Of a DNA stretch of 64,000 nt, positions 348 through 34,139 are shown in pieces (the stretch's first letter is position 1; every line of letters starts with the position of its first letter). A program made the translations under genes and the position numbers. The notes under the pieces were generated by a model that saw nothing but the letters and a program-made list of their open reading frames with translations, made no database searches and was not told the origin of the DNA. The DNA comes from Pirellulales bacterium (GTDB taxonomy: Bacteria; Planctomycetota; Planctomycetia; Pirellulales; Lacipirellulaceae). Location of the stretch: positions 44,645 through 108,644 of the forward strand of contig JBBDYG010000071.1 of NCBI GenBank assembly GCA_040901765.1, read 5' to 3'.

Positions 348-372
348 GCCGTCGCACCACGTGCGACATGGC
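348..372. repeat. REP-like GC hairpin, copy 1 (GTCGCAC-CAC-GTGCGAC core with GCCG/CGGC extension)
   Basis: gccGTCGCACcacGTGCGACatggcggc. Same family as the copies at 23130, 28234, 32834 and 34094. Intergenic position. Confidence 0.6.
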
Positions 373-434
373 GGCGTCTAATGTCCGTTGTGGTGGTATC
401 GGCGGCATAACCCGCAGAGTTGAGTGAAAGAGAG

Positions 435-512
435 GGCTGTCGGCTCTCGGCTGTCGGCGTTCGGCCAGAAAAAAATGGCAGTCGCTCTCCTTCTGGCCGA
501 TACCCGACAGCC
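435..512 (+). promoter_or_regulatory. nested palindrome / conserved 5' element upstream of ABC exporter (GGCTGTCGGC x2, GGCCAGAAAAAAA, inverted CCGACAGCC)
   Basis: Direct repeat ggctgtcggc at 435 and 449. Inverted partners ttctggcc and cccgacagcc at 491-512, with an A7 run between. The motif GGCTGTCGGC-NN-TCGGCCAGA recurs at 52855-52890 upstream of, or within the 5' end of, the OMF gene. Confidence 0.35.
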
Positions 513-622
513 TTATCCGCTAGTTGCTATCATCCCCGCTGATCTTTGTGCTCGCAGCGGCTTCTGCTACAACGGCCAACCTTGCTGGCACCCCCGCCCG
601 AACCCTCCCCCGCCCTCTGCGC

Positions 623-2620
623 ATGAGTCAATTCGCCCGCGCGCTGAAACTCGCCCTTCGCCATCGGCTGAACGTCGCGGCCTGTGTGGTTACGTCGCTA
701 TTGGTGGCAGTGCTGTGGGCCGCCAATTTGGCCGCCATCTATCCCATCGTCGACATGGTGATGCTCAAAAAGACCATCCCCATGTGGCTGGCCGAGCAAG
801 TTGACAGCAACACCGCCAAAGCCCGCGAGCTCGACCACGATTTGATCGCTCTCGACAAACAGCTTGCGGCTGCCAAACCCGATGATTTGATGAGCCTGCG
901 CGGCAAGATCGCCAACGCCAAGTTCTACCGCGATCGTCACCAGGAGAAGGCCGAATACTACGGCTGGGTGCTGCCCTGGGCTCAGCGATGGCTGCCCAAT
1001 ACGCCCTTCAAGACGCTGATTGCGGTCTGCATCTACGTGCTCGTCGGCACGCACCTCAAGAATGTATTTCGGGTCGCCAACACGCTGCTGGTGGCACGGT
1101 TGGGAAACATTGCCACCCAAAATCTTCGCAATGAGTTCTACAACCACATGCTGCGGCTCGACATGGCCGACTTTACTGACCAAGGCCGGGGCGATTTGAT
1201 GAACCGCTGCACGGGTGACCTGAACAACGTCGGCAACGGCGTGCAGGTGCTGTTCGGCATGGCAGTCCGCGAACCGCTCAAGATGATCGCCTGTCTCGTG
1301 ATGGCAGCCTGCGTAAGCTGGCGGCTCCTGCTGTTGACAATCCTCATCGCGCCTCCGACCGGGCTGGCCATCCACTGGCTCGCCAAAGCGCTCAAGCGGG
1401 CCAATCGCCGCGCGATGGAAGAGCTCTCCTCCATCTATGAAACGCTCACCGAAACCCTCAGCGGCATCAAGCTGATCAAAGCCTTTACCATGGAGCCATC
1501 CGAGCGAAGCAAGTTCCATCGGTCGTCGCGAACTTACTACAAGCGGCAGATGAAGATCGCCTGGTACAATGCGCTTGTTAGCCCCGTCACCGAGAACCTG
1601 GGTATCGGTATGGTGGTGCTCGCCGCGCTCGCGGGGGGATACCTCGTTTTGAATGAGCAGACCCACTTGTTTGGAATTCGCATCAGCAACGATCCACTGA
1701 CGCACGGGATGATGAGCGTGTTCTTCGCGATGCTGATCGGCATGAGCGACCCCGCGCGGCGGCTGTCGGAAGTGTTCAACAACCTTCAATCGGCCGTCGC
1801 AGCCAGCGATCGCGTGTATCAGGTGCTCGACCGCGAGCCGCAGATTCTCGATCCCGAAGATCCGGTCCGCCTGCCTGAGCCGGTGCGATCGATTCGGTTC
1901 GACAACGTGTCGTTCAGCTACGATCCCGAGAAACAAGTGCTCCGCGAGATAAATCTGGAGGTGTCCGCTCGCGAGACGATCGCCATCGTCGGCCCCAACG
2001 GCTGCGGCAAAAGCACGCTCCTGTCGCTCCTGCCGCGGTTTTTCGATCCGACCGATGGGGCGGTGCTTCTGAACGGCGTCGATCTACGCACCGTGCGGCT
2101 ACGCGACTTGCGGTCGCGGATCGGTGTCGTATCCCAAGAAGTGCTGCTGTTCAACGACACGGTGGCGGACAACATCGCCTACGGGGCGCTCGACGCCAGC
2201 CAGCAGGCGATCGAGGCCGCCGCCCGCAAGGCACACGCCCACGGCTTCATCGTCGATAAACTCGCCGACGGCTACCAGACGCTCGTCGGCCCCGGAGGCA
2301 ACCGGCTCTCCGGCGGCCAGCGGCAGCGGATCGCCCTCGCCCGGGCGATCCTCCGCGACCCCGAGATTCTGATCCTCGACGAAGCCACGAGCCAGATCGA
2401 CCTCGAGAGCGAACAGCTCATTCACCAAGTGCTCGAGGAATTCACCCGCGACCGCACGACGCTGCTCATTACCCACCGCATGAGCACCATCTGCCTGGCC
2501 GACCGCGTGGTCGTGATGGACAAGGGCCAAATGCTCGACGTCGGCACCCACGACGAACTTGCCGAACGTTGCACGCTCTATCGCCGGCTATGCGACTTGG
2601 GATATCGCGAGAGCGCGTAG
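623..2620 (+). CDS. ABC transporter, fused permease/ATP-binding exporter (MsbA/ABCB-like)
   Basis: Walker A GPNGCGKST, ABC signature LSGGQRQRIALARA, Walker B ILILDEAT, and six-TM exporter domain. Start placed at the internal ATG (MSQFARALK) because the 524 upstream extension is hydrophobic and lacks an RBS. Unusual ~100 aa coiled-coil insert after TM1. Confidence 0.85.
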   Translation: MSQFARALKLALRHRLNVAACVVTSLLVAVLWAANLAAIYPIVDMVMLKKTIPMWLAEQVDSNTAKARELDHDLIALDKQLAAAKPDDLMSLRGKIANAKFYRDRHQEKAEYYGWVLPWAQRWLPNTPFKTLIAVCIYVLVGTHLKNVFRVANTLLVARLGNIATQNLRNEFYNHMLRLDMADFTDQGRGDLMNRCTGDLNNVGNGVQVLFGMAVREPLKMIACLVMAACVSWRLLLLTILIAPPTGLAIHWLAKALKRANRRAMEELSSIYETLTETLSGIKLIKAFTMEPSERSKFHRSSRTYYKRQMKIAWYNALVSPVTENLGIGMVVLAALAGGYLVLNEQTHLFGIRISNDPLTHGMMSVFFAMLIGMSDPARRLSEVFNNLQSAVAASDRVYQVLDREPQILDPEDPVRLPEPVRSIRFDNVSFSYDPEKQVLREINLEVSARETIAIVGPNGCGKSTLLSLLPRFFDPTDGAVLLNGVDLRTVRLRDLRSRIGVVSQEVLLFNDTVADNIAYGALDASQQAIEAAARKAHAHGFIVDKLADGYQTLVGPGGNRLSGGQRQRIALARAILRDPEILILDEATSQIDLESEQLIHQVLEEFTRDRTTLLITHRMSTICLADRVVVMDKGQMLDVGTHDELAERCTLYRRLCDLGYRESA

Positions 2621-2640
2621 CATTAATCACGACGACGATC

Positions 2641-3663
2641 CTACAAATAATCCTTGTCCTGAAGGATCATGCTGGGCAGGTCCATGTTTGACCGCTTGTC
2701 GAATAGGGTCATCAGCGCTTGGTACACGCGATAGTCGATATCTTGCCGTAGAAAAATTGCCCGGCCGCTACCGAAAACGACGTTGACGCCATTGGAGTGA
2801 TAGCTCGACGGCCGGGCGTTGATCGAGTTGAGCTCGCTCTCGTTTTCTGCGCCTTCCTTACACGTTCCCCTTGTAAACCGCCTGCTCACTGAGTTCTCGC
2901 ACTTGCCACCGCCAGATGTGCGGTACAGTGGCTCTTCGTTGATTCTGGCCCCTGTGGGCGGTATTCCTTCCTTGGTGTTATGCCAGAAAAATACGGGATT
3001 CCAGGTGCGATCCTTCAACTGCGGAAAAAAACTTGGATCGGTCACGAGCGCCGGCGGGTTGTTCTCATCGAAGCCATTCCAGCCGATTTCGTCGAAGAAG
3101 GTGGCGGTCGTGCTTTCGGAGTAAATCAACGTGTATTCTCGCCCATCCCGCCAATGTCCTTCCAATGTTTCGTACTCCGGATGGAATATCCGATTATGGA
3201 AGACGCCATCGGGAATGTTATCGTCCACCACACTCCCGGCACGTCCGCCATTGGCAACATAGGAAGTCACAGATCCTTCACGAGGTTTCGCTGCTTCGCT
3301 CGGGCATAGCAACATGCTCACATACCCGTCGGGACGGACTCCCGTGTGATACGCTTCGTACAACTTCTGCTGTTCGAGGCCGGGAAGCAGTAGGACCGCC
3401 CAAGTCGTTGTCAAATCAGCGTTCTTCGACACGGTATTTGCAGCCTGCAACTTGTCGAACAGCCCCGGAAACCTACGCAACCGCTCTTCAAATTGAAGCG
3501 TTGCAAGTCCTAACTGCCGCAGGCTGCTGAGACACTGAGTGCGCCGCCCACTTTCCCGCGCACTTTGCACCGCAGGGAGCAACAACGCCATCATCGTCCC
3601 AATAATGGCGATCACCACCAACAACTCGACGAGGGTAAACCCGCGTGAATGCGACTTGGCCAT
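2641..3663 (-). CDS. DUF1559 protein with prepilin-type N-terminal cleavage/methylation motif (planctomycete H-X9-DG family)
   Basis: [23 protein letters not shown]-terminus and C-terminal YHSNGVNVVFGSG variant of the H-X9-DG motif. AGGAGA RBS upstream of the internal ATG at 3663. Paralogs at 33042 and 37565. Confidence 0.8.
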   Translation of the reverse strand: MAKSHSRGFTLVELLVVIAIIGTMMALLLPAVQSARESGRRTQCLSSLRQLGLATLQFEERLRRFPGLFDKLQAANTVSKNADLTTTWAVLLLPGLEQQKLYEAYHTGVRPDGYVSMLLCPSEAAKPREGSVTSYVANGGRAGSVVDDNIPDGVFHNRIFHPEYETLEGHWRDGREYTLIYSESTTATFFDEIGWNGFDENNPPALVTDPSFFPQLKDRTWNPVFFWHNTKEGIPPTGARINEEPLYRTSGGGKCENSVSRRFTRGTCKEGAENESELNSINARPSSYHSNGVNVVFGSGRAIFLRQDIDYRVYQALMTLFDKRSNMDLPSMILQDKDYL

Positions 3664-3952
3664 GACACGTTTCTCCTGAGTTCCTCCGCTGTTCCGAACC
3701 GGCCGCCGGCGCACGACCGGCAACCCTGACTCGCAATCAGTCTACCGATTTATTCACCGTTTGTCGAACTTTTCCCCCAGCCTGGTTGGGCAGGGCATCC
3801 GCCCGCCGGGGGCGAGGCTCCCGCCAACCCTGAGGCAAGGTACACGGATCAGGCTCCGCTGGAGCGTCGCTCTCCCAGCCGCGACTGGATACGATTAGAA
3901 AGATCGCCGTGGTCGCGGACGACGCGGCTCGCGCCGCCCAGCACTTGTCTTC

Positions 3953-3988
3953 CAATCCTAAATCCCAAATCTGAAATCCCAAATCCCA
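3953..3988 (+). repeat. 7-bp-period tandem array AATCCCA-like x5, ending exactly at the radical SAM start codon
   Basis: aatccta aatccca aatctga aatccca aatccca then ATG at 3989. No SD sequence is present. Same architecture as the arrays at 29985-30090 and 48280-48370. Confidence 0.6.
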
Positions 3989-4903
3989 ATGCCCGCCCAC
4001 CAGCTCCACACCCTGCACGAGCGTTTGTTCGAGGCGAACCGCTTCGCCTATCCCGTGCTCAGCCGCCGGTCGGGCGGGATTTCCGTGGGCGTTAATCTGA
4101 ACCCGGACAAGGTTTGCAACTTCGATTGCATCTACTGCCAAGTGGACCGCCGCTCGCAGAGCGAGACGCGGTTTGTTGAGACCGAACAGCTTTTGGAAGA
4201 ACTGGACGCCGTACTGGACGCGGTCACGAGCGGCGCGATTTACGAAACCGAAAAGTTCGGCTCGACCCCACCCCACCTGCGGCGACTGAACGACATCGCC
4301 TTCTCCGGCGACGGCGAACCGACAACATTCAAGAACTTTGACCAGATCATCCAGGCCTGCGCGGACTTGAAGCGCCAGTTCGAATCGCGCATTCAGCAAT
4401 CCGCAATCCCGGGTACCCTCTGGGTGCCGCAATCCGCAATCAAACTCGTTCTCATCACCAACGCCAGCATGTTCCACCGGCTCCACGTCGAGCGCGGACT
4501 GGCGATTCTCGACCAGAACAACGGAGAGATTTGGGCCAAGCTCGAAGCGGGCACCGACGAGTACTATCACCTCATCGAGCGCACGCCGATTCCGTTCCGG
4601 CGGATTCTCGATAACATCACCGCCGCCGCCCGCGTGCGGCCGCTGGTGATTCAGTCGCTCTTCATGCGCGTCGCCGGCGAGCCGCCTGCGGCTACGGAGT
4701 TGGAAGCGTTCTGCGACCGCTTAAACGAAATCACTGCCGCCGGCGGCCAGTTGAAACTGGTGCAGATTTATACGATCGCCCGCCGCCCGGCGGAATCGAT
4801 TGTTACGCCGCTCGAAGATGCGGAGGTGGATGCAATAGTGGACTTGGTGCGCCAGCGGACGGGGTTAAATGCGCTGGGATTCTACGGCAGCGCGGAGTAT
4901 TAA
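3989..4903 (+). CDS. radical SAM domain protein
   Basis: CNFDCIYC (CxxxCxxC) cluster near the N-terminus, with a GDGEPT motif downstream. Confidence 0.75.
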   Translation: MPAHQLHTLHERLFEANRFAYPVLSRRSGGISVGVNLNPDKVCNFDCIYCQVDRRSQSETRFVETEQLLEELDAVLDAVTSGAIYETEKFGSTPPHLRRLNDIAFSGDGEPTTFKNFDQIIQACADLKRQFESRIQQSAIPGTLWVPQSAIKLVLITNASMFHRLHVERGLAILDQNNGEIWAKLEAGTDEYYHLIERTPIPFRRILDNITAAARVRPLVIQSLFMRVAGEPPAATELEAFCDRLNEITAAGGQLKLVQIYTIARRPAESIVTPLEDAEVDAIVDLVRQRTGLNALGFYGSAEY

Positions 4904-6571: not shown

Positions 6572-6588
6572 CGGCGCAGTTAATCGCC

Positions 6589-9364: not shown

Positions 9365-10519
9365 CTACAGCAATTCCGGCCACATGGCGTCGCTCACGAG
9401 CAGCCCGTCGCGGGTCAGGCAAACCCGATGGCCGTCGTCCTGGAGCAAGCCCATCTGCACATAGCGCCTCAGCTCGCGGCCTGCGAGTTGGTCGATCTCG
9501 AAACCCGTAGCGCTCTGAAACGCGGCTCGATGGACGCCTTCTAGCCGCCGCAGGCCGAAAATCAGCCGCTCGCGAGCACGCTGTTCCGGATTGAGCCGCT
9601 CGCGCTCGGCAACCGGCGACTCGCCGGCCAGAACATGCTTAAGATATGTCGTCGTGCTGCGGTGATTCGTCTCCCGCATGCCATCGACGTACCGCGCCGC
9701 GCCGGGGCCGGCGGCATAGTAGCCGCCGCCGCTCCAATAATTCTCATTGTGGCGGCTGCGCTTGCCGGGCCGAGCAAAGTTGGAGACTTCGTAGTGCTCG
9801 AAGCCAGCACTCGAAAGCTCGTCGATTGTCCACTCGTACATCTCCCGCTGCAACTCTTCGTCGCTTTCCACCAGGTCGCGTTTCTCGCGGCGATTCCAAA
9901 ACGTGGTGCCACGCTCAAACGTAAGGCCATAAGCGGAAATATGTTCAGGAGCAAGCTCGATCGCTTCGCCCAAGTCCCGCTGCCAGTCGGCGAGCGTTTC
10001 ACCTGGGGTCGCGAAGATCATGTCGAGCGACACGTCGAGACCCGCGCCACGGGCTAACCGCACCGATTCGGCAATTGCCTCCGGCGCGTGGTCGCGTTCG
10101 AGCAGCTTCAGCTTTTCGACTCGAAAGGATTGCCCGCCAATGCTCAGGCGAGTGACGCCAAATTGAACGAGCGCCTCGACCAAGCCTGCGGAAAGATCGG
10201 CGGGATTCGCTTCAACCGTCCACTCGTTTCCCGCGGCCAGTGGGTGCCAATTGCGAACGGTCCGGACTAACCGGGAAAAGTCATCGATTGCGAGCCGCGT
10301 CGGCGTGCCGCCGCCGAAGTAGAGCGTATCGACCTCGCGCGGCGTTTCGAGCCACGACAGTTCTCGCTCGATCGCATCGAGATACGCGGGCACCAGATCA
10401 TCGCGTCCCGCGACGACAGTGAAGTTGCAATACCCGCAGTGGTGCCGGCAAAACGGGACGTGAATATACACCGCTCGGGGCGGGGCATCGACCGCGGCGA
10501 TGGTGGCCGCCGCGGTCAT
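9365..10519 (-). CDS. hemW: radical SAM heme chaperone HemW (HemN-like coproporphyrinogen III oxidase family)
   Basis: VYIHVPFCRHHCGYCNF and LYFGGGTPT motifs. 4-nt overlap with the upstream cytochrome c gene. Confidence 0.8.
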   Translation of the reverse strand: MTAAATIAAVDAPPRAVYIHVPFCRHHCGYCNFTVVAGRDDLVPAYLDAIERELSWLETPREVDTLYFGGGTPTRLAIDDFSRLVRTVRNWHPLAAGNEWTVEANPADLSAGLVEALVQFGVTRLSIGGQSFRVEKLKLLERDHAPEAIAESVRLARGAGLDVSLDMIFATPGETLADWQRDLGEAIELAPEHISAYGLTFERGTTFWNRREKRDLVESDEELQREMYEWTIDELSSAGFEHYEVSNFARPGKRSRHNENYWSGGGYYAAGPGAARYVDGMRETNHRSTTTYLKHVLAGESPVAERERLNPEQRARERLIFGLRRLEGVHRAAFQSATGFEIDQLAGRELRRYVQMGLLQDDGHRVCLTRDGLLVSDAMWPELL

Positions 10520-11685
10520 GGCGACTCCTGATGGCGAAACGAAGCGTGAGTTGGGTCGCCTTTAGCTTCGACGTAGGCCAACAAGTCGAGCAGTTCCTCT
10601 TCACTTAACACATCGATCATGCCCGCGGGCATCGCCGAAGTTGTAAGCGGTTCTGGCTCGTCGTCTAGCTGATGGCGCTCGACGCGCTGCGGCGTGCAAT
10701 CGTGCATCGGATCGGCAATTACGACAAGGTAGTCCTTTGTTTGTTCAGTCACTAGTCCGGTGATCGGTTTGCCATCTACCACCAACAGGAACTGACGATA
10801 GTTCTCAGCGATTTTTTTATCGGGAGCGATGATTGCCTCGGCCAATTCGCGGCGGGATGGCCGGTATTCCGCACTCGTAAGATTCGGCCCGACGAGCGTA
10901 TCGTGCTCGCTCTTCACGTGGCATCGGTGGCAACCGACCTCATGGTACGCGCGCCGGCCGCGAGCAAATGATCGCGAACCGGCTGGCCAATCGAGTGCGG
11001 GATCCAGATCGCTCATTACGTAGCGTCGCACAGACAGACGGGGCGATTTGAGCAATTGATCCGTCGCAAATCGCGGAAGCGTTGCAGTAGCCACGGCGCT
11101 CAACGCGAGGTCATCCTCCGCGGCCTCAAGCGCCGCGCGGATTTCCTGCTCCAGGCCCGGAACCGATCCGAGAGCGGCAATCACCGCCTTGCGGGCGCCC
11201 AGCCGTTGCTCATCCGGCCAACCGGACAGCAGGCTCAACGAATCGTCGTCCAGAAGCGGCACAGCCCTCTCTGCCAGTGCAATCCGTAGATAATCATCCA
11301 TCAGCAGCGGCATCGCAGCGAGCAGATTGATGAATCCGTCAGATGTTCCCCAGGCAAGTTCCCACGCCGGGTCGATGTGGCCATCGACCGTCATCAGTGC
11401 CGCGAATGCAGTCGCGGCCAAATCGGAATCATCGCCCACCGCTAGTTTTTGCAACCGCGCACGTTGGGCGTATAGTGCGTCGTACTTGCGGGATGCCATC
11501 AACGCCAGAATCGAACTAGGCCAAGCCGAATCGCTTGCTACATTGACTGGAAGTTGACTTGCAGTAACGATTTGCTTTGTCTCTCGGTCACAGCCGCCCA
11601 AGGACACGACGACCAACCACAATAGCACCGCACAGCGCACACTTCGCAGGTGAGTCGGAAGTGTGCGGAGACTTGTAAACATCAT
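10516..11685 (-). CDS. lipoprotein with C-terminal cytochrome c domain
   Basis: CHRCH heme-binding motif (CxxCH) near the C-terminus. Signal peptide ending SLGGC from the internal ATG (MMFTSL). Confidence 0.6.
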   Translation of the reverse strand: MMFTSLRTLPTHLRSVRCAVLLWLVVVSLGGCDRETKQIVTASQLPVNVASDSAWPSSILALMASRKYDALYAQRARLQKLAVGDDSDLAATAFAALMTVDGHIDPAWELAWGTSDGFINLLAAMPLLMDDYLRIALAERAVPLLDDDSLSLLSGWPDEQRLGARKAVIAALGSVPGLEQEIRAALEAAEDDLALSAVATATLPRFATDQLLKSPRLSVRRYVMSDLDPALDWPAGSRSFARGRRAYHEVGCHRCHVKSEHDTLVGPNLTSAEYRPSRRELAEAIIAPDKKIAENYRQFLLVVDGKPITGLVTEQTKDYLVVIADPMHDCTPQRVERHQLDDEPEPLTTSAMPAGMIDVLSEEELLDLLAYVEAKGDPTHASFRHQESP

Positions 11686-11894
11686 CGAATTTCGCAACAG
11701 GTGCCGGTTGGGTTCATTATGAACCACCTTGCGTTTCTTGGCCATGAGTAGCATTTTGAACAGAAGGTCGCCAAGTTCGCGAAGGAGTTGGAAAAAGTCT
11801 GGGCTGAAACAGACTTTCTGACCTTCCTCATTCTTTGCGGACTTTGCGGCCTTCTGTTCAAGCGTTCGGCAGTTTTGTTCCGGCGGCAATTCTC

Positions 11895-14315: not shown

Positions 14316-14333
14316 TCTCACGGCAGCCGGATG

Positions 14334-14352
14334 TCCCCCGGCGGAGCCGGGG
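14334..14352. terminator. GC hairpin between convergent genes (possible bidirectional terminator)
   Basis: cccccggc gga gccggggg, an 8-bp stem, 16 nt after the copA stop. No U tract follows. Confidence 0.3.
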
Positions 14353-14367
14353 GCTGGCAAGCGCAAA

Positions 14368-17232: not shown

Positions 17233-17305
17233 GGAAACGGCTTGCGGGGCGTGACTTTCGGGGCGCGACACGTGAAAATGTACCGCAGGCCAGGGGCGCA
17301 CCCAG

Positions 17306-18130
17306 TTGGCCGCGGCAATTGGGTCGAACTGCAAGGAACGCACAATCGTGTCAGAACTTAAAATCGGCATTCAAACCCGCAGCCTGCGGTTGCCGTTGAG
17401 ACAGGCGATTCGAGTCGCGGCGGAACTCGGCGCCGCGGGGGTCGAGATCGATCTGCGATACGAGCTGCGGCCCGAGGAACTGTCCCAGACCGGATTGCGG
17501 GAATTTCGCAAACTGCTCGCCGACCAGAATCAGCGCGTCTCGGCTGCGGCATTCCCCACGCGGCGCGGCTTCGGGGATGCAGCCGATCTCGATCGCCGCA
17601 TCGCGGCAACGCAACAAGCAATGGAATTCGCCGGTCGGCTCGGTGCGCGGGTGCTCGTAAACCGGGTCGGCGCTGTGCCGGCCGACGAAAGTGACCCCCG
17701 TTTTTTGCGGATGGTCGAGGCGCTCACCGCGCTGGGCGTGTATGGCGACCGCGTTGGAGTGCGGCTCGCGGCGCAAACGGCAAGCGAAAGCGGCCCGCAG
17801 CTTTTGCGGTTGCTCGCGCAACTGCCCGAGGGAACTATCGGCGTGGATTTCCACCCCGCTGCGCTGATTCAAGGCGGTTTCTCCGTTCCCGAAGCACTCG
17901 AAGCCCTGGCGCCGCACGTGATTCACGTCCACGCCTGCGATGCGGTCCGCGACTTCGGCCAGCAACGAGCCGTGGAGGTCGAATTAGGGCGCGGGGCGGC
18001 CGAAATTCCCGAAATCCTTGGCCGGCTCGAAGAGTTCAACTACCAAGGTTGGGTAACCATTGAACGCAGCGATACCGCGGATCCGCGAAGTGATATTGGA
18101 AACGCCGTGGCGTATCTCAAAGCGATGTAG
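17306..18130 (+). CDS. sugar phosphate isomerase/epimerase (xylose isomerase-like TIM barrel)
   Basis: LKIGIQTRSL...ELGAAGVEIDL with conserved Glu/His-containing blocks typical of the AP endonuclease 2 / xylose isomerase-like fold. Confidence 0.7.
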   Translation: MAAAIGSNCKERTIVSELKIGIQTRSLRLPLRQAIRVAAELGAAGVEIDLRYELRPEELSQTGLREFRKLLADQNQRVSAAAFPTRRGFGDAADLDRRIAATQQAMEFAGRLGARVLVNRVGAVPADESDPRFLRMVEALTALGVYGDRVGVRLAAQTASESGPQLLRLLAQLPEGTIGVDFHPAALIQGGFSVPEALEALAPHVIHVHACDAVRDFGQQRAVEVELGRGAAEIPEILGRLEEFNYQGWVTIERSDTADPRSDIGNAVAYLKAM

Positions 18131-20492: not shown

Positions 20493-20538
20493 GCCCGGCC
20501 ATTCTGGCCGGCGTTACGCCGACCCAGGATGGGTCGGC
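20493..20538 (+). terminator. two tandem GC hairpins after fliG (putative terminator)
   Basis: ccggcc attct ggccgg, then gccgaccc aggat gggtcggc (8-bp stem). Only a short TATAT follows. Confidence 0.35.
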
Positions 20539-23358: not shown

Positions 23359-23613
23359 ATGGGCAAGTACGACAAACTCTTTCGCAAAATCACTAGCGGT
23401 CATTCCGATGCGAACATCGCATTTGACGAGTTGCGAAAGCTGTTATTACGTTTGAATTTTTACGAGCGGACCGAGGGAAGTCATCACATATTCACACGGG
23501 ATGACATCGAAGAGTTGATCAATCTTCAGCGTGATGGCGCAAAGGCTAAACCTTACCAGGTGCGGCAAGTTCGCGACGTCATCACTCAAAACAATCTCAG
23601 TTTGGAGCCGTAA
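23359..23613 (+). CDS. hicA: HicA-family toxin (YcfA-like mRNA interferase)
   Basis: RTEGSHHIFTRDD and N-terminal KLFRKITSGHSD...LRKLL pattern. 1-nt TAATG overlap with hicB. Confidence 0.65.
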   Translation: MGKYDKLFRKITSGHSDANIAFDELRKLLLRLNFYERTEGSHHIFTRDDIEELINLQRDGAKAKPYQVRQVRDVITQNNLSLEP

Positions 23614-23825
23614 TGCATAAGTACGAAATCATCATTTATTGGAGCGAGATTGACGACGCGTTCCTTGCGGAAGTACCGGAACTTCCCGGCTGCATGGCCC
23701 ATGGTAATTCGCAGAAGACCGCGCTGGAGTCCGTTCAACAGGCGATCGATCTTTGGTTGCAGACCGCGGGAGAGCTTGGGCGATCGATTCCCGAACCGAA
23801 GGGCCGGCGTTTGATGCTCGCGTAG
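23613..23825 (+). CDS. hicB: HicB-family antitoxin (UPF0150)
   Basis: YEIIIYWSEIDDAFLAEVPELPGCMAHGNSQKTALESVQQAIDLWL matches the HicB N-terminal domain pattern. Confidence 0.65.
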   Translation: MHKYEIIIYWSEIDDAFLAEVPELPGCMAHGNSQKTALESVQQAIDLWLQTAGELGRSIPEPKGRRLMLA

Positions 23826-26488: not shown

Positions 26489-26845
26489 TCAGACATTTTG
26501 GCGGCGAATCCGAATCCGGCCGCGAGTAATCGTCACAATTACCGGGCCGGTCAATTCATGCGGGTAATTCGCAAGCAACTCGCCAATCGCTGAAACTTGC
26601 TCATCGACGGAAAGTTCGACCACCCGAACCAATGGCCCATGCGGAAGTTTCTGAACAAACACCAGTTCCCCGAAATCCTTGTCTTCGGTGATCAGCACAC
26701 GATCATCGCCCAGAGCAACATCCATGAGTAGTTCGTCAGTGGCGCGCGGATTGATTGAGAATGCCGATAGAACGTCATGGCCCTGCGCCACAAGAAAATC
26801 AGTGAGCAATTGCGACGAGACGCAGACATCGAGCAAAAATTTCAT
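26489..26845 (-). CDS. DUF5615 (PIN-like) toxin candidate
   Basis: MKFLLDVCVS...GHDV...LITEDKDFGEL pattern. 4-nt overlap with the upstream DUF433 gene. Confidence 0.6.
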   Translation of the reverse strand: MKFLLDVCVSSQLLTDFLVAQGHDVLSAFSINPRATDELLMDVALGDDRVLITEDKDFGELVFVQKLPHGPLVRVVELSVDEQVSAIGELLANYPHELTGPVIVTITRGRIRIRRQNV

Positions 26846-27117
26846 GATGCCTGAGCTATTACGAGCCGTTCATACACCTGCTCGCCGGCAAGCGATCGAT
26901 GCGCATAGGCAAGGCAAGCTTGAATGTCCGCCGGCTCCAAGAACGGATATTCAACCAACAATCTCTCAGGCGTATCTCCTGCTGCCAGCTTGGCAAGCAC
27001 ATGCTCGACCGCAATCCGCAAGCCACGGATAATCGGCTTGCCACCAAAGATGCCGGGATTCACAGTGATACGCTGGAGTAATTCGCCTTCGGCCGGATGC
27101 TGGTCGGTTTTAGTCAT
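26842..27117 (-). CDS. DUF433 antitoxin-like protein
   Basis: ITVNPGIFGGKPIIRGLRIAVEHVLAKLAAG DUF433 core. Start at the internal ATG (MTKTDQ). Confidence 0.6.
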   Translation of the reverse strand: MTKTDQHPAEGELLQRITVNPGIFGGKPIIRGLRIAVEHVLAKLAAGDTPERLLVEYPFLEPADIQACLAYAHRSLAGEQVYERLVIAQAS

Positions 27118-27208
27118 GATCGGTACTCCGTGCTTTTGTTTACCCAATTCTAGCTGAAGGTGGGGAGTAGAGTCAAAATCAAACTCGAGCTTCTTTGAAT
27201 TGTGTGGT

Positions 27209-28216
27209 CTACGCACGCAGCCACGCTCCCAGCCGCTCCATCCCCTCCGCGGTCGTAACCCGTGGCTGGTAGCCGAAGTCGCGCCGCGCAGCGGAGATGT
27301 CGAACCAATGGCTTGTGGACAGTTGCCGAGCGAGAAACCGCGTCATGCGCGGCTCGTCCGTCCGGCCTAATACTCGATATGCACCTTCCAAGACCGCGCC
27401 GATCGCATAGGCGGTTCGCGCGGAGATCGACTTTCGCACCGGCGGCAAATCGACTAACGCCAGAATCTGGTCGATCCACTGCCAGCAGTTGACGGGTTCG
27501 CCCTGGCTAATGAAATAGGCCTTGCCGGCGACGGGCGACGCTGGATCGGCGAGCGCGTCGGCCGCCTGCAAATGTGCTGCCGCGGCGTTTTCGACGTAGG
27601 TAATGTCCACCAGATTTGTGCCATTTCCGACGCGGCGTAACTTGCCGGTGCGGGCGCGTTGAATTAATCGCGGGATAAGATGCGTGTCGCGTGGGCCCCA
27701 AATTAGATGCGGACGCAAGGCACAGGATCGAGTTGGTCCGCCACGTAGATTAATCTGCAATGTAGCGAGTTCGGCAGTTCCCTTTGTATAGGAATACCAA
27801 GCATTCCGCACCATTTGCCACAAGGGAGCGTATTCCGCCGATTCGTCGATCCCATTCTGATCCAAGCCGGCGAAGACGACGCTGGGGCTGCTCGTGTAAA
27901 CAAGCCGTGGGACTTGATTGAAGCGGCAACCAAGTAATACCATTCGCGTGCCCGAGATATTTGGCAGCGAGTAGTCGGTGTATTCGCCACCAATACCCGC
28001 ACGAGCAGCCGTGTGAAACACGCAGTCGATGCCCTCACACGCAGCTACGATGGCGTTGCGATCGGTAATGTCGCCCCGGACGACCTCGACGCCGATCGCT
28101 TCCAGTTCGGGATAAGCACCTCGGCCGAAACTGCGCACAGTATCTCCGCGCGCAACGAGTTGCTCGACGATGTAACGTCCCAAGAAACCACCGCCACCAG
28201 TGACCAACGCGTGCAT
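27209..28216 (-). CDS. NAD-dependent epimerase/dehydratase family protein (3-beta-HSD/SDR-like reductase)
   Basis: MHALVTGGGGFLGRYIV Rossmann motif and a YxxxK-type SDR active-site region. Confidence 0.8.
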   Translation of the reverse strand: MHALVTGGGGFLGRYIVEQLVARGDTVRSFGRGAYPELEAIGVEVVRGDITDRNAIVAACEGIDCVFHTAARAGIGGEYTDYSLPNISGTRMVLLGCRFNQVPRLVYTSSPSVVFAGLDQNGIDESAEYAPLWQMVRNAWYSYTKGTAELATLQINLRGGPTRSCALRPHLIWGPRDTHLIPRLIQRARTGKLRRVGNGTNLVDITYVENAAAAHLQAADALADPASPVAGKAYFISQGEPVNCWQWIDQILALVDLPPVRKSISARTAYAIGAVLEGAYRVLGRTDEPRMTRFLARQLSTSHWFDISAARRDFGYQPRVTTAEGMERLGAWLRA

Positions 28217-28233
28217 GAATGAAAGTTCCGTTG

Positions 28234-28260
28234 AAGCCGTCGCACCACGTGCGACGGCTT
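28234..28260. repeat. REP-like hairpin, perfect 12-bp stem (AAGCCGTCGCAC-cac-GTGCGACGGCTT)
   Basis: Perfect palindrome overlapping the stop codon of the AMP-ligase gene. No U tract follows. Confidence 0.65.
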
Positions 28261-29962
28261 AGCGTTTGAGTCTCTCCGCTGCCCACTCCGCAAGCTGCTC
28301 GCGAAAAATCTTGGAGTTGTGCCGAATATCGACGGGTAGTTGCTCGTGGAGCAGGAAGTGATTGATGTGTTGGGTGTGGAAATGTTGCTTGGCAAGTGTG
28401 TGAAGGTCTTGCTCAATGGCGGGCCACTCCGCGGGGGTCGGCGGCGACCGTAGGTCGCCGGCTATTGGATCGCGTTCAAGTTCTACAATGACGACAGGCG
28501 TTTGCGCGCCGCGCTCGCCGATGCCGACCAGTGCCGTGCGTCGCACGTTGGCATGAGTGTTGAACACCGCCTCGACACATTCGGTGTAAAGCGGCCCCGC
28601 CGCGGTCTCCACTCTCTGCGACTGTCGCCCGCAATACCAAAACCGCTGCTGTTCGTCGAAGTAGCCAACATCACCCATTCGGTGCCAAATCGTGTCTCCG
28701 TCACGGTTTTTTGAGAGTACATTTGCCAATTCCAGTTTGACATACTCTAGCGACACCTGCGGCCCGCGAACGATCAACTCGCCGACTTCGCCAGCGGGCA
28801 GTTCTTCCGCATCGCCGATTGTTTTAATCGGCTCGTCGGTGATGCGAATAATTCGCCAGTCAATCATATCGAACTTCCGGCCGACGCAGACGCCGGAACC
28901 CGTCGCGGTTTTCGCGGCAGTTTCACTCAGCACTTCTTGCGCTTCGATCGTCGCCACGGGCAGGCTTTCAGTCGCGCCGTAGGGCGTGTGCATATGGGCC
29001 GTGGCGTGAACGCACGCGAGTGTCCGCTGTAGCACGCTCGCGGGTACCGGCGCGCCACAGGAAAACACCTCGCGTAGCGAATCGATTCTCTGGCCCGTCT
29101 GCTCGCAGTGCCGGCTGAGATTATCCCACACGGCGGGCGACGCGAACGCCTGCGTCACCTGCCAGTCGTGAGCGGCGGCGAGCAGCCGCTCGGGGTCGGC
29201 CGAAGCGGGCCGCGAGAAATCCATTTCGGGAAACACGGTCGTTACGCCGAGCGCCACGTTGAACAGCCCGAACAGTGGAAAACACGCCAAGTCCACTCCG
29301 CCAGGCTCGATGCCATACATCGCCGCGATCTCGCTCGCCTGCGTGGCGAATGTACGGTGGTGATAGAGCACACCCTTGGGCGGGCCGGTGCTGCCGCTCG
29401 TGAACACGATCGCCGCCGGGTCGTCGGCGTGCGTTTCGGGCAGCGCCGCTTCGCTCTCCGCGCCTAGCTCGCGAAGCTGCTCGAGCTTCAGCCCGCCCCA
29501 GAACCATCGCCGTCCGACGGTGACATTCCATTTCGCACCACGAAACCGCCGCGGCATCAGCGTCCGCAGCGCTTGCGCGGCAGAGATCGCCACAAACCCT
29601 TGTGGCTCCATGTCGGACAAACAGTGGAAGATGTTCTTTCGGCCAAGACCCGCATCGACAAGCACCATCACCGCGCCAGCGCGGAGCAGAGCGAACACGA
29701 GCGTTACGAACTCAATGCCCGGCCGCACGAGCATAGCCAGCCGCGTTCCGGGCGTGACGCCCCAGGCCACAAAACCGCGGGCGAGGGTGGTTGCATCGGC
29801 ATCAAGATCGGCATAGGTAATCGTCGCATAGCGGTTGCCCGAATGCTTTGTGAGCCGCTGATAGCCGTGCGACCACTTCGCCGGGCACGCCAGTGCAATC
29901 CGCCCAGGCATCCTATGGGCCATTTCGGCAAGGCGATCGGCTACATTCAGGCGGTCGGGCAT
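28259..29962 (-). CDS. AMP-dependent synthetase/ligase (fatty-acyl-AMP ligase-like)
   Basis: TSGSTGPPKG AMP-binding motif. Start moved to the internal ATG (MPDRLNV) because the track's N-terminal 48 aa merely translate the 7-mer repeat array. Confidence 0.75.
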   Translation of the reverse strand: MPDRLNVADRLAEMAHRMPGRIALACPAKWSHGYQRLTKHSGNRYATITYADLDADATTLARGFVAWGVTPGTRLAMLVRPGIEFVTLVFALLRAGAVMVLVDAGLGRKNIFHCLSDMEPQGFVAISAAQALRTLMPRRFRGAKWNVTVGRRWFWGGLKLEQLRELGAESEAALPETHADDPAAIVFTSGSTGPPKGVLYHHRTFATQASEIAAMYGIEPGGVDLACFPLFGLFNVALGVTTVFPEMDFSRPASADPERLLAAAHDWQVTQAFASPAVWDNLSRHCEQTGQRIDSLREVFSCGAPVPASVLQRTLACVHATAHMHTPYGATESLPVATIEAQEVLSETAAKTATGSGVCVGRKFDMIDWRIIRITDEPIKTIGDAEELPAGEVGELIVRGPQVSLEYVKLELANVLSKNRDGDTIWHRMGDVGYFDEQQRFWYCGRQSQRVETAAGPLYTECVEAVFNTHANVRRTALVGIGERGAQTPVVIVELERDPIAGDLRSPPTPAEWPAIEQDLHTLAKQHFHTQHINHFLLHEQLPVDIRHNSKIFREQLAEWAAERLKR

Positions 29963-29984
29963 GGTGGTATTGTGGGGAGGAAAA

Positions 29985-30309: not shown

Positions 30310-30951
30310 ATGCTCGACATGATATTTCTGATCACGGCGGTCGGCGGCGGCACGATCATGCTCGTGCAAGTCGCCCTCACGCTGTTGGGATTAGATGACG
30401 GCGACGGTCACGGCGATATCGGCGGGCACCACATCGACGGCGGCGATGGGGACGTGGACGCGGGCGCTGCGCTCTCCCACGCCGACGCGGGAAGCCACCT
30501 GTTCGACGTGCTTTCCTTCCGCTCACTCGTCGGGGCGGCCACCTTCTTCGGGCTCGCAGGCAAGGCGGCGACCTCGGCCGGGATGTCCGACTTTGCTTCC
30601 GTGGGCACGGCAACGCTCGCCGGCGTGGCGGCCCTGTACGGCGTCTACTGGATCATGCGCCAAATCTATCGGTTACAAACCTCCGGTAACGAAGACATCC
30701 GCAACGCGCTCGGCAAACGAGCCCACGTGATTGTGGCCATTCCCGCCGCCCGCGCGGGCGCTGGCAAAGTCCACATCCGCATGCAAAACCGACTCATCGA
30801 GTATCGCGCCGTATCGGGCGACGCGGAATCCTTGCGATCGGGCACCGAAGTCGCCGTGCTAGACTGTATCGGCAGCGACACTCTGGAAGTGACCCGCGCG
30901 GCTGTCGAGCCAACCACGACTTCCGCAATCGCAGTACCAGCGCCCGTTTAG
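30310..30951 (+). CDS. NfeD-like membrane protein (partner of flotillin/SPFH) with His/Asp/Gly-rich segment
   Basis: AGGAGG RBS. TM helix. C-terminal OB-fold block GKRAHVIVAIPAARAGAGKVHIRMQNRLIEYRAV..GTEVAVLD. Gly/Asp/His-rich linker GLDDGDGHGDIGGHHIDGGDGDVD. Confidence 0.6.
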   Translation: MLDMIFLITAVGGGTIMLVQVALTLLGLDDGDGHGDIGGHHIDGGDGDVDAGAALSHADAGSHLFDVLSFRSLVGAATFFGLAGKAATSAGMSDFASVGTATLAGVAALYGVYWIMRQIYRLQTSGNEDIRNALGKRAHVIVAIPAARAGAGKVHIRMQNRLIEYRAVSGDAESLRSGTEVAVLDCIGSDTLEVTRAAVEPTTTSAIAVPAPV

Positions 30952-31174
30952 CTTTCGGATCGATCATCGCGGAAAGACCTAACCAATCAAAAACAGTCAA
31001 ACTCAAAGCAAGCAATCATTTGCACCACGGAGGCACGGCGGACACGGAGTAGAAATAGGGCGATCGAATAGAAATGGCGCGCTGCCCCGCTTCCTATCGT
31101 AAATATTCTCCGTGTCCTCGGTGCCTCCGTGGTGATTCACAGTTCCACGTCGCATAAACCAGGGGGATTCAGAA

Positions 31175-32827
31175 ATGCTCGTAACACCGTTACTCATCGG
31201 TCAATCGCCGCTCGATAACCTACCGGGAGGGGTATGGACGGTACTGATGATCGCCGCGGCGGTCTTGTTCCTAATTGTCATGCCGCTGCTATTCATCAAG
31301 TCGTGCATGCGGCGGTGCAGCAGCAACCAAGTGCTCGTTGTCTACGGTTTGACCGGCAAGGGACGAACGGCCAAAACAATTCACGGCGGGGCGACATTCG
31401 TCATCCCGCTATTGCAAGATTACCGCTACTTGCGGCTGGAGCCGATTCAGATCGAAACTCCGCTGCGGGGCGCGCTCTCGGCCGAGAACATTCGCGTTAA
31501 TGTTCCGAGTGTCTTCACGGTGGCAATTGGCACCTCGCCCGATGTGATGACTAATGCCGCGATTCGCCTTCTCGATCTTTCGACCGATCAAATTCGTAAG
31601 CAAGCGGAGGAAATTATCTTCGGTCAGTTGCGGCAAGTCATCGCCTCGATGCGGATCGAAGACATTAACCGTGACCGCGACACGTTCTTACAGCACATTC
31701 AAGAGTCACTGGAGCCGGAGCTAAAAAAGATCGGCCTGGTGCTGATCAACGTGAACATCACCGACATTACCGACGAATCGGGCTACATCGACGCGATTGG
31801 TCAGAAGGCCGCTTCTCAAGCGATCCAGCAGGCCCGCGGCGACGTGGCCGATCAGGTGAAGCTTGGCGAAGTGCATGTGGCGGAGGCGGAGCGCGAAAAG
31901 GTAGTGTCTGTCGCCAATGCCACTAAGTCCCGCGAGATCGGAACGCGGGAGGCAGTCCGCGAGCAGGCCGTGCGGATCGCGGAGTTGGAAAAAGAGCAAA
32001 CCATCGGCGAGCAGACGGCGATCTTTCAACGCGAAATGCAAGTAAAGGAAGCCGAGCAACTGAAGCGCGTGAGCATCGCCGAGGCCGACGCGCGGGCGGT
32101 GGATGGCGAAAACATCGCCGAAGCGAAGATCGCCCAATCGCAGGCGACGCTGCTGGAACAACGAGCCGATGCGTACCAACGCGGTGAGACCCGTAAACGC
32201 GAAGCGGAGGCAGCGGTTATCGAATTTCAGAACCGGGCGATGGCTAAGGCGGCCCTCGCCGAAGCGGAGCGGATCGAAGCCGAGCAACGGGCGAAGCTCG
32301 AAGCCCCCGCCAAGGCCCAGAAGGCGCGAATCCTCGTCGATGCCGAGGCGGAAGCCGAGAAGCGGCGGATCGAAGCGCAAGGCGAGGCATCGGCGATCTT
32401 CGCCAAGCTCGAAGCCGAGGCCCGCGGCCACTACGAAATCCTCGCCAAGAAGGGCGACGGACTCAAGCAGATCGTCGAGGCGTGCGGCGGCGCGCAGCAG
32501 GCATTCCAACTCATGATGCTCGAACACTTGGAGCACCTGGCCGACGCCAGTGCCAAGGCGATCTCGAACATCAAATTCGACAAGGTCGTGGTGTGGGAGA
32601 ACGGCGGCAGGAACGGCCGTAGCTCGACCGCCGACTTCTTGCACAGCATGTCTGGCGCGCTACCGCCGATGCTGCAAGTAATGCGCGACATCGGCGGTGT
32701 CGAGATTCCCGAGAGCCTGGCGAAACTCGCCGGGCACGGCGACGGCAACGGCGACATGAAGACTGAGACGGTCGAGCTGAAGCCAGAGAAGGTGCGGATT
32801 ATCGACCCGGCGAAGAAGCAGAGCTAG
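31175..32827 (+). CDS. flotillin-like SPFH/band-7 protein
   Basis: N-terminal TM plus SPFH domain, then a long Glu/Ala/Arg-rich coiled coil (EAEREKVVSVANATKSREIGTREAVREQA...). Confidence 0.8.
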   Translation: MLVTPLLIGQSPLDNLPGGVWTVLMIAAAVLFLIVMPLLFIKSCMRRCSSNQVLVVYGLTGKGRTAKTIHGGATFVIPLLQDYRYLRLEPIQIETPLRGALSAENIRVNVPSVFTVAIGTSPDVMTNAAIRLLDLSTDQIRKQAEEIIFGQLRQVIASMRIEDINRDRDTFLQHIQESLEPELKKIGLVLINVNITDITDESGYIDAIGQKAASQAIQQARGDVADQVKLGEVHVAEAEREKVVSVANATKSREIGTREAVREQAVRIAELEKEQTIGEQTAIFQREMQVKEAEQLKRVSIAEADARAVDGENIAEAKIAQSQATLLEQRADAYQRGETRKREAEAAVIEFQNRAMAKAALAEAERIEAEQRAKLEAPAKAQKARILVDAEAEAEKRRIEAQGEASAIFAKLEAEARGHYEILAKKGDGLKQIVEACGGAQQAFQLMMLEHLEHLADASAKAISNIKFDKVVVWENGGRNGRSSTADFLHSMSGALPPMLQVMRDIGGVEIPESLAKLAGHGDGNGDMKTETVELKPEKVRIIDPAKKQS

Positions 32828-32833
32828 GTCCGT

Positions 32834-32877
32834 GTCGCACGTGGTGCGACGGCGTAAGCCGCGGCACCACGTGCCGC
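32834..32877. repeat. REP-like hairpin pair downstream of flotillin gene
   Basis: GTCGCAC-gtg-GTGCGAC ggcgtaagcc GCGGCAC-cac-GTGCCGC. Confidence 0.6.
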
Positions 32878-33041
32878 ATGGCAACTCCGCCACATTTTCT
32901 CCGTCTCTTCGCGCGCCCTTCATCAATTTCTCACATTGCTCGAATAAGCTTCCCTGTCGTTTCTCGTTCTTGTGCGGGTTTGGTTTGAACCTGACGCAAG
33001 CTTTCAGCAGGAAGCACAATGCAAAGTGAGGAGGGTGACAC

Positions 33042-34073
33042 GTGGATATTCTCGCCGGAGGTGGGCAAAGACAGCAACGGAGTTGTGGCTTTACGCTGGT
33101 GGAATTGCTGGTTGTAATCGCGATCGTCGGCATCTTGATCGCGCTATTGCTCCCGGCAATTCAGGCGGCCCGAGAAGCGGCACGCCGTTCTCAATGCATG
33201 AACAACATGCGGCAAGTTGGAATTGCCATTCACAATCACGTCAGTGCGAGAAACACGCTGCCGTCCGGCGGCGAGGGCACCGATTGGAGAACAAACGCTA
33301 CGGGGTTCGACGTCAATTCGACGTTTACGCAGTTGCTTCCCTATCTCGAAGAAGCGACCGTAGCCGACCTGTACGATTATAAGTATCCCTATAACCACAT
33401 CGACCGCCCCGACAACCAACAGGCCGCCAAAGCCAACATCGCCAGCTTCCGCTGTCCGTCGAATGCCATCGGGTTGCCCGATCCTGCCGGCTACGGCGGC
33501 GTCGATTACATGCCGACCGCATACACCGATATCCACCCCACGACCGGCGTACGCGATCCCGCCACGTCGACTGCACGCAATTCGCGTGCTGACGGCGCAC
33601 TCGCCCTCCTGCCGGTCAACATCGGTAAAGTCACCGACGGCACGAGCAAAACCATTGCCATCGCGGAAGACGCGGGCCGGAACTTCGAGACCGAGGAACC
33701 GTTTACTACATCCAGGTATCCCGACATCGCAGCGATCGCTCCCGACGCCAAGACCCCCAGCGGCAAACGTGCCATCAATCGTTGGGCCGAACCGGACACC
33801 GGCAACGGCGTCTCGGGTCCGCCCAACTCGCAATTGGGCGCGCTCAAGCCTGTGATTAACAATCACAATACGCCGGTCGGCGGACCGCCCGAGTGCCCGT
33901 GGAGAACGAACAATTGCGGCCCCAACGACGAGATATTCTCATTTCACCCGGGTGGGGCCATTGCATGCTTTGCGGACGGCAGCGCGCACTTCCTTGAAGA
34001 GTCGATCGAACCGCAGGTCATGCGGACGCTCGTCACTCGATCCGAGGGCGACGTGAACCAATGGGCGCCCTGA
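33042..34073 (+). CDS. DUF1559 protein with prepilin-type N-terminal motif and H-X9-DG C-terminus
   Basis: [37 protein letters not shown] and [17 protein letters not shown] (H-X9-DG). GTG start with a GAGGAGG RBS. Confidence 0.8.
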
Positions 34074-34093
34074 TCTGCTGGCGCATCGACCCA

Positions 34094-34139
34094 TGCCGCA
34101 CGTGGTGCCGCGGATTAAACCGTCGCACCACTTGCGACA
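34094..34139. repeat. REP-like hairpin pair (degenerate) downstream of DUF1559 gene
   Basis: gccgcacgtggtgccgcgg is the reverse orientation of the 32861 copy. cgtcgcaccacttgcgac is the 348 copy with G to T. Confidence 0.5.

Follow-up and report, generated by a model that had tools for sequence, protein, structure and literature searches.

A 64-kb stretch of DNA from an uncultured Pirellulales planctomycete (64,000 nucleotides of contig JBBDYG010000071.1; hereafter, the window) carries GC-rich hairpins at five loci, and these hairpins are a genuine family of small palindromic repeats of the repetitive extragenic palindrome (REP) type. With a probability of roughly 75%, we consider them to belong to a lineage-restricted REP/REPIN family whose copies were spread in trans by an enzyme resembling the REP-associated tyrosine transposases (RAYTs). 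This explanation is supported by the REP/REPIN anatomy of the repeats, by their presence or absence at orthologous sites, and by a gene for a single-tyrosine (Y1) HuH protein that is flanked by the same REPs in a sister contig, L092.

A family of palindromic repeats in the window

We searched the window with a covariance model built from 16 aligned units of the window and two related contigs, run with filters off. It recovered eight REP units, which are distributed over five loci and lie entirely within the first 34 kb. The eight units scored 37–50 bits (E <= 4e-7), the next-best match reached 14.6 bits, and no degenerate extra copies were detected in the 64 kb. The hairpins that an initial annotation of the window had reported at five loci are thus present. 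The exact 17-mer GTCGCAC-CAC/GTG-GTGCGAC occurs at 351, 23130, 28239 and 32834, with a one-mismatch copy at 34122. When up to two mismatches were allowed, five matches were obtained against 0.72 expected, a number reached in 0/100 dinucleotide shuffles. Among perfect hairpins with 3-nt loops, those with CAC/GTG loops were the sole recurrent class in the window. The perfect-hairpin scan also revealed partner hairpins with variant stems at 23157 (GCGACAC/GTGTCGC) and 32861 (GCGGCAC/GTGCCGC), and a scan tolerating one mismatch added a partner at 34095 (GCCGCAC/GTGCCGC, one stem mismatch). No Rfam family matched anywhere in the window.

Read in the orientation with the CAC loop, the unit follows the consensus (A)AGCC - GYSRCAC - CAC - GTGYSRC - AYGG, with conserved flanks (5' AGCC and 3' AYGG) around the stem and its CAC loop. 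Three stem variants (GTCGCAC, GCGGCAC and GCGACAC) differ at stem positions 2–4, and the opposite arm always compensates. Across the 16 aligned units, 96.4% of stem cells are paired and 3/7 pairs show changes on both sides; the observed covariation was reached by 0/500 shuffles, and slid controls collapsed. Stems are perfect and cores near-identical in six of the eight units, suggesting recent copying or selection. The initial annotation had described perfect stems of 7–12 bp, which applies to these six units and not to the two at 34094–34139, each of which has one mismatch.

Three of the five loci are inverted doublets of ~52 nt with a 10-nt spacer. Their layout is that of a tail-out heterodimer, CCRT-[unit 1, GTG loop]-GGNTTMANCC-[unit 2, CAC loop]-AYGG. 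In the minimum-free-energy single-strand fold of each doublet, both units join in a single long, imperfect hairpin instead of forming a small one each (z = -3.2 to -4.9), which is REPIN geometry and is the larger hairpin expected of inverted REP pairs. Together with the stem covariation, this anatomy upholds the proposal that the hairpins form a REP-type palindrome family, often arranged in inverted pairs.

The family is real in the host and apparently narrow in its distribution. An independent Logan assembly (L089, SRR27977660) is 100% identical to the window over 32399–37196, including two doublets, which excludes the assembly artefact that the initial annotation had named as a way in which its reading might fail. 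Its other concern, that there might be no further copies, is answered by additional units in two related contigs, L083 and L092, and the palindromes thus agree with REPs, short units (20–40 bp) repeated at many dispersed loci. As far as seen, three or four closely related metagenomic lineages carry the family, and neither the REPs nor the enzyme family described below was found in the viral contigs searched. One isolated copy with an AGCC flank, ATAGCC-GTCGCAC-CAC-GTGCGAC-GGAAAG, was observed at 1009–1027 of L076, a JGI soil-type contig (56% GC) that has no protein-level similarity to the window.

The host is an uncultured Pirellulales planctomycete and not a proteobacterium, the setting against which the initial annotation had read the repeats. 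MutS of the window is 100% identical to a protein that NCBI names 'MAG: Pirellulales bacterium', and the nearest cultured genera by MutS, Aeoliella, Lacipirellula and Bythopirellula, are only about 66–68% identical. The three DUF1559 / N-terminal-methylation genes of the window are likewise typical of Planctomycetes.

Genomic positions of the repeats

Two loci hold single units on the plus strand, both identified by the covariance model. The unit AGCC-GTCGCAC-CAC-GTGCGAC-ATGG at 347–371 (46.6 bits) lies in the intergenic region between two divergent genes. It is 37 nt upstream of a minus-strand lipoprotein gene (MKTLYTALAVALAVSSAGC..., start codon at 311), and an ABC-transporter gene (524–2620) lies on the other side of this region. 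The unit at 28234–28260 has a 12-bp perfect stem, AAGCCGTCGCAC-CAC-GTGCGACGGCTT, because its AAGCC/GGCTT flanks pair. It lies in the 42-nt spacer between a minus-strand AMP-binding gene and the co-directional epimerase gene that follows (start 28216), and its stem overlaps the TAA stop codon of the AMP-binding gene (28259–28261). On the downstream side of the epimerase gene, the minus strand carries a DUF433 gene next to a DUF5615 gene (26489–27216), a pairing that we take to resemble a toxin-antitoxin-like module.

The other three loci are the doublets, to which no strand is assigned. The doublet CCGT-[GTCGCAC GTG GTGCGAC]-GGCGTAAGCC-[GCGGCAC CAC GTGCCGC]-ATGG at 32830–32881 begins 2 nt past the stop codon of a flotillin (Band 7) gene. 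It is followed by a plus-strand DUF1559 / N-terminal-methylation gene (33042–34073) and, 17 nt past the stop codon of that gene and upstream of a DUF4432 gene, by the doublet CCAT-[GCCGCAC GTG GTGCCGC]-GGATTAAACC-[GTCGCAC CAC TTGCGAC]-ATGG at 34091–34142. The latter has one mismatch per unit and the same structure as the other doublets, in the opposite orientation. The third doublet, CCAT-[GTCGCAC GTG GTGCGAC]-GGCTTCAGCC-[GCGACAC CAC GTGTCGC]-ACGA at 23126–23177, is situated in frame inside mutS.

As is usual for REPs, the repeats are mainly extragenic and near gene 3' ends: four of the five loci are extragenic and three lie 0–17 nt from a stop codon, with one further locus in a divergent promoter region and one within a gene. 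The claim that most loci directly follow stop codons and lack U tracts is accurate for these three and for the missing U tracts, and does not extend to the divergent region or to mutS. No U tract or T run follows any unit and a terminator scan called none of the REPs; we rejected intrinsic (Rho-independent) terminators as an explanation because no U tract follows the hairpins. One unit supplies part of a stop codon, and the three loci in 3' untranslated or intra-operon positions would form RNA hairpins.

The window contains three DUF1559 / N-terminal-methylation paralogues (2641–3723, 33042–34073 and 37565–38584), of which the second alone has REPs on its flanks. Since the first and third have none, we rejected the idea that DUF1559 genes are generally REP-flanked. 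The nearest homologues of the flanked gene (79–81% identical) lie in unrelated gene contexts and have no REPs, and they are uninformative on orthologous sites.

Gain and loss of repeats between sister lineages

We compared the window with L083, a related contig with ~94% protein identity, and found that REPs differ at two orthologous sites, as expected of repeats that are gained and lost. The first site is in mutS (20610–23327, plus strand, 905 aa), whose reading frame stays open through the REPs. The doublet encodes ..HVARGATASAATPRVA.. (VARGATASAATPRVA) in the variable linker after MutS domain V, which ends at residue 831, and the conserved C-terminus LQLTLFEQTNHPLLEEIR..LTPMEAL (LQLTLFE...LTPMEAL) comes after the encoded stretch. 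The initial annotation had regarded this pair, at 23130–23173, merely as the source of a spurious open reading frame (ORF); the pair is instead translated within the real mutS frame, and the doublet is tolerated there in a flexible linker.

In L083, the mutS DNA encodes a protein 94% identical to that of the window (P0002) and is 27 nt shorter at this site, which is exactly one unit plus the spacer. We considered whether P0002 carries a single REP (peptide HVAPRAS) and rejected this, as its DNA, GTGGCGCCGCGGGCAAGT, forms no hairpin. Three other MutS proteins with 85–88% identity (P0003, P0004 and P0006) lack the doublet, and a fourth (P0005, 87% identical) carries a doublet-like peptide at the protein level, HVARGATAVAAAPRSA. 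The sequence CCRTGT precedes the site in REP-less orthologues as well. The presence of the doublet is thus patchy on the MutS tree, which implies either an old insertion followed by loss or repeated insertion at one site.

The second site is a convergent region at 14.3 kb. L083 has a three-unit REP cluster between a P-type ATPase gene and a gene of 966 aa, made up of GCGACAC-CAC-GTGTCGC, one degenerate unit and CCAT-GTCGCAC-GCG-GTGCGAC-GGC. The orthologous spacer of the window, between the P-type ATPase gene and a 1000-aa gene (14316–14367), contains only an unrelated perfect 8-bp hairpin, CCCCCGGC-GGA-GCCGGGGG, at 14335–14353. The doublet after the flotillin gene, on the other hand, is present in both the window and L092, where it differs at 3/52 positions (by reading both sequences) and is spanned by the BLAST alignment.

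Other features of these regions were noted. Two large minus-strand ORFs of the window, the 1000-aa ORF (14368–17370) and one of 457 aa (10516–11889), have no Pfam match at E <= 1e-5, and the 966-aa counterpart of the former in L083 likewise has none. Between fliG and mutS, a 9-bp hairpin, GCCGACCCA-GGA-TGGGTCGGC, lies at 20518–20538 and is kept at L083 5949–5969 with the loop GAA. This hairpin does not belong with the REPs and may mark a transcript end or have a regulatory role. A HicA toxin gene (23359–23613) and a HicB-like antitoxin gene (23613–23825), which overlap at TAATG, are located between mutS and a redoxin gene. In L083, the redoxin gene directly follows mutS with no such pair between them, so the pair is either an insertion in the window or a deletion in L083. 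There is no REP at the junctions of this pair.

A RAYT-like gene flanked by the same repeats

Seven published RAYT/TIRYT sequences, used as tblastn queries, gave no match in the window or in the loci fetched before L092. L092 is the contig of a 95%-identical flotillin (ENA ERZ27311181). Its DNA is 89% identical to the window over 31162–32884 and 95% over 34105–35337, and differs between these flanks. The slot between the REPs that separate flotillin from DUF4432, occupied in the window by the DUF1559 gene, corresponds to 2105–2737 of L092 and contains there a gene for a 160-aa RAYT-like protein, which we call P0361. Upstream, the flotillin stop codon is followed by a REP doublet, a promoter-like site, a single REP unit, and GGAGG with a GTG start; downstream of the 160-aa ORF, a REP doublet and a degenerate third unit precede DUF4432. 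The promoter-like site is sigma-70-like (TTGACA-17-TACATT, 10/12 matches) and, with the single unit after it in the gene's leader, spans 2120–2191, an arrangement through which the hairpin or the enzyme could regulate the gene. L092 therefore has the arrangement of a REPtron, a RAYT gene flanked by its own REPs, which the window itself does not. A gene resembling the RAYT gene that the initial annotation had advised looking for was thus encountered in a sister contig and not in the 64 kb, and its suggestion that a tyrosine transposase of this kind might mobilise the repeats is strengthened by the flanking REPs and by the structural match described below.

P0361 has no Pfam match, and a PDB sequence search gave nothing useful. 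Its best NCBIfam match is REP_Tyr_transpos (NF047646, E = 3e-4). An exhaustive HMMER search identified 411 representatives with E <= 1e-3, of which 210 reach E <= 1e-10; most are about 160 aa long. One member of the family bears the IMG name 'REP element-mobilizing transposase RayT'. In an alignment of 58 members, H83 and H85 (T/S-H-u-H-u-L-u-S-W) and Y143 (H-F-x-x-L-x-x-x-Y-L-P-x-H) are conserved in 56–57, W120 (WFSRGG) is conserved in 44, and an N-terminal HAYGSWxPD motif is likewise conserved. At E <= 0.01, 20 of these 58 relatives match Pfam Y1_Tnp and 14 match REP_Tyr_transpos; 14 match IS200 models. When the family profile was compared by hhalign with 16 RAYT/TIRYT sequences from the Di Nocera supplement, a probability of 96.5% (E = 1e-9) was obtained, with HuH aligned on HuH and Y143 on the catalytic tyrosine.

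We predicted the structure of P0361. A single-sequence model was poor (pLDDT 55) and was replaced by an alignment-based AlphaFold model with pLDDT 96.8 and pTM 0.88. The top PDB match of this model is 4ER8, the E. coli RAYT with a REP hairpin, followed by the ISDra2, IS200 and IS608 transposases. P0361 is thus predicted to combine HuH residues and a catalytic tyrosine (H83, H85 and Y143) in a Y1-transposase fold.

A second locus supports the association of such genes with palindromic repeats. The closest representative, P0362 (53% identical to P0361), is encoded on contig L093 between Mg-chelatase-like and UvrD-like genes. It is flanked on both sides, at 3846–3949 and 4540–4660, by AAAGCC-GCATTGC-CAC-GCAATGC-GAGG and inverted partners, AAAGCC-GCGTTGC-TAC-GCAACGC-TGGT. 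These REPs and the window family have in common the AGCC flank, a 7-bp stem, a YAC loop and a 3' GG, and differ in stem sequence. From these two cases, we infer that the enzyme may read the flank and loop, leaving the stem free to co-vary. In orientation, the AGCC ends face outward in the L093 REPs and inward in the window doublets.

Comparison with known systems

The closest parallel is the E. coli REP/BIME system with its RAYT (TnpA-REP, YafM; PDB 4ER8). In both systems, short palindromes that are GC-rich and imperfect lie mostly outside genes, often as inverted pairs, and also border the gene of a small HuH single-tyrosine enzyme; 4ER8 is also the best structural match. The family described here differs in lacking GTAG, in its flanks (5'-AGCC and 3'-AYGG) and CAC loop, and in its planctomycete host. 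RAYTs carry (D/N)HuH, WQ and YIxxNP, whereas this enzyme has T-H-u-H, WFS and YLPxH and scores far below the curated RAYT level.

In Pseudomonas fluorescens, Bertels and Rainey reportedly described in 2011 REPINs in which two inverted REPs and a short spacer form one long hairpin, said to be the mobile unit, with singlets that reportedly look like half-elements. The doublets of the window are shorter (~52 nt, 10-nt spacer), their halves are stem variants, making them heterodimers, and their mobility is presumed.

REPs and REPtrons have already been reported in Pirellulales, namely GTAG-20/21 of Rhodopirellula baltica with the RAYT rba11751 (Di Nocera et al. 2013, PMC3733652). The same study described heterodimers, REPs that overlap a stop codon and REPs inserted in frame within genes, DNA repair genes being a notable case. 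Its text names uvrA/B, uvrD, polA, recBCD, dnaE/dnaE2 and DNA ligase as REP-bearing repair genes, and a text search found no mutS among them. The family in the window belongs to neither the GTAG nor the CGTC superfamily of that study, as it carries neither unpaired tag, and it departs from the CGTC families in the length of the stem, in the loop and in the tail. CGTC-REPs have an unpaired CGTC tag, an 8–9-bp stem starting with A/T pairs, a 4–5-nt loop and a CCA tail (PMC3733652). We examined membership in this group because GCCGTCGCAC contains CGTC, and rejected it: the units have a GC-rich 7-bp stem, a 3-nt loop and an AYGG tail, and CGTC is confined to the paired stem of one variant.

Class 3 TnpA-Y1 proteins are rare, occur mainly in Planctomycetes (and in Acidobacteria), and have genes flanked by atypical, sometimes numerous hairpins in a REPtron-like arrangement (Quentin et al. 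2018, PMC6006769). They are characterized by NHVH, W[TA] and YV..EQ, by a CnGA foot and by a length with a median of 178 aa, in contrast to THuH, WFS and YLPxH, about 160 aa and AGCC/GG flanks here; this separation is one of motifs, not of phylogeny. The kind of system is therefore known, while the REP sequence class and the enzyme clade appear not to have been described previously, judging by motif comparison with Di Nocera 2013 and Quentin 2018.

Two other groups of elements share single features with the family. Rickettsia palindromic elements and other intragenic REPs are alike in being in-frame palindromic insertions that add a short peptide in a tolerant region and are patchy between lineages; the Rickettsia elements belong to a different sequence family, host and size class, and only one of the five loci here is intragenic. 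IS200/IS605 elements (IS608 and ISDra2) have the same enzyme fold and recognise subterminal hairpins on single strands. They are autonomous, with distinct left and right ends and often tnpB, whereas in the DNA examined here the hairpins are far more numerous than the gene, and identical units stand to its left and right.

Explanations of the repeat family

In the explanation that we favor, the mobile units would be non-autonomous hairpins of ~25 nt (AGCC, 7-bp stem, CAC loop, 7-bp stem and AYGG), often joined tail-out into doublets of ~52 nt. A small (~160 aa) HuH/Y1 transposase of the RAYT kind, its gene sitting inside a cluster of the same REPs, would recognise the units as single-stranded hairpins. 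By analogy with the Y1 HuH chemistry of 4ER8, IS608 and ISDra2, it would cleave beside the hairpin through a 5'-phosphotyrosine and rejoin the DNA at a target. The repeat family with its covarying stems, the doublets, the differences between sister lineages and the physical association with a Y1-fold gene in L092 and L093 are observed; that such an enzyme cleaves and joins these hairpins, that its gene may still reside in the genome of the window and that the copies may still be mobile is what we infer.

Several observations weigh against this explanation. No Y1 or RAYT homologue is encoded within the 64-kb window, where the slot is held by a DUF1559 gene, and the enzyme may have been lost in this lineage. 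The REPtron evidence comprises one related (L092) and one distant (L093) case. P0361 reaches 20.7 bits against the curated RAYT cut-off of 80 in NF047646, the RAYT-specific motifs WQ/WE and YIxxNP are replaced by WFSRGG and YLPxH in the family consensus, and its T-H-u-H, WFS and YLPxH motifs differ from all 11 subclasses in Table 1 of Quentin 2018. The units have no GTAG tag. The boundaries of the mutS insertion are unclean, as divergence prevents alignment of the 16 nt surrounding the 27-nt difference. Moreover, when 185,579 species-representative genomes (596 Gb) were scanned for the exact 17-mer, 74 single, taxonomically scattered matches were obtained, roughly the chance level by our estimate, with no genome rich in the 17-mer, and a 19-mer scan of JGI metagenomes returned eight single matches and no family.

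Some of these observations would fit a history, possible though doubtful, in which the REPs of the window are relics. A RAYT-like enzyme would have spread them in an ancestor, and the lineage of the window would then have lost the gene to DUF1559, leaving immobile copies that decay or are kept where harmless. That neither the orthologous slot nor any other part of the window holds a RAYT-like gene agrees with such a loss, as do the mismatches in both units at 34091–34142 and the retention of the post-flotillin doublet in the same position in both the window and L092. The perfect stems and near-identical cores of 6/8 units, with the recent copying or selection that they suggest, speak against it. 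Furthermore, a gene for the enzyme could lie in another part of the genome. As RAYT loss with retention of REPs is known in some E. coli strains (PMC3733652), the relic history is a variant of spread by a RAYT-like enzyme, not a true alternative to it.

It is unlikely that the hairpins are structures selected by the host, such as RNA 3'-end stabilisers, terminators or protein-binding sites on DNA, with an incidental association to a Y1 gene. Three of the five loci directly follow stop codons in co-directional gene pairs, compensatory changes maintain the stems, and the core CACGTG / CACNNNGTG palindromes, as read from sequence, could be bound by a dimeric protein. Such roles are nevertheless difficult to reconcile with the missing U tracts and terminator-like calls, with the placement of one copy within a coding sequence and of another in a divergent promoter region, and with the lack of an Rfam match. 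They also do not account for presence at orthologous sites that differs between sister lineages, or for REP units clustering on both sides of a Y1-transposase-fold gene at two unrelated loci.

The equal number of family members matching IS200 and RAYT models (14/58 each), and the position of ISDra2, IS200 and IS608 transposases close behind 4ER8 in the fold search, raise the question of whether the hairpins are ends or miniature derivatives of a conventional multi-copy IS200/IS605-type element rather than products of a single-copy domesticated REPtron. We regard this as quite improbable. The hairpins mostly occur without a transposase gene (eight units and no gene in 64 kb), the same unit stands on both sides of the gene, where an insertion sequence would have a left end distinct from its right end, there is no neighbouring tnpB, and P0361 is a singleton cluster on one contig.

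A more far-reaching joint reading, to which we give very little credence, is that the ~160-aa THuH/YLPxH proteins are an unclassified Y1 HuH class with its own REP class and that the doublets bound exchangeable gene slots. If true, REP-mediated excision, integration or recombination may move whole genes, aiding the expansion and shuffling of DUF1559 paralogues in Planctomycetes. Finally, chance similarity or an assembly artefact is hardly conceivable given the four exact 17-mers, the eight model matches at E <= 4e-7, the identical independent assembly and the orthologous copies in other samples.

Implications for REP systems in Planctomycetes

REP/RAYT systems are best studied in Proteobacteria, and the enzyme associated with this planctomycete family has diverged so far that it escapes standard models. 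Outside Proteobacteria, REPtrons may therefore be under-annotated. In the two enzyme/REP pairs, the AGCC flank and the YAC loop are conserved while the stem changes, making them probable determinants of recognition or cleavage. The gene swap in the flotillin–DUF4432 slot and the presence or absence of the mutS doublet are natural contrasts for the loss of a REPtron and for the tolerance of REP-encoded peptides by proteins. For annotation, it matters that such hairpins give rise to small ORFs that are spurious and change how long real proteins are.

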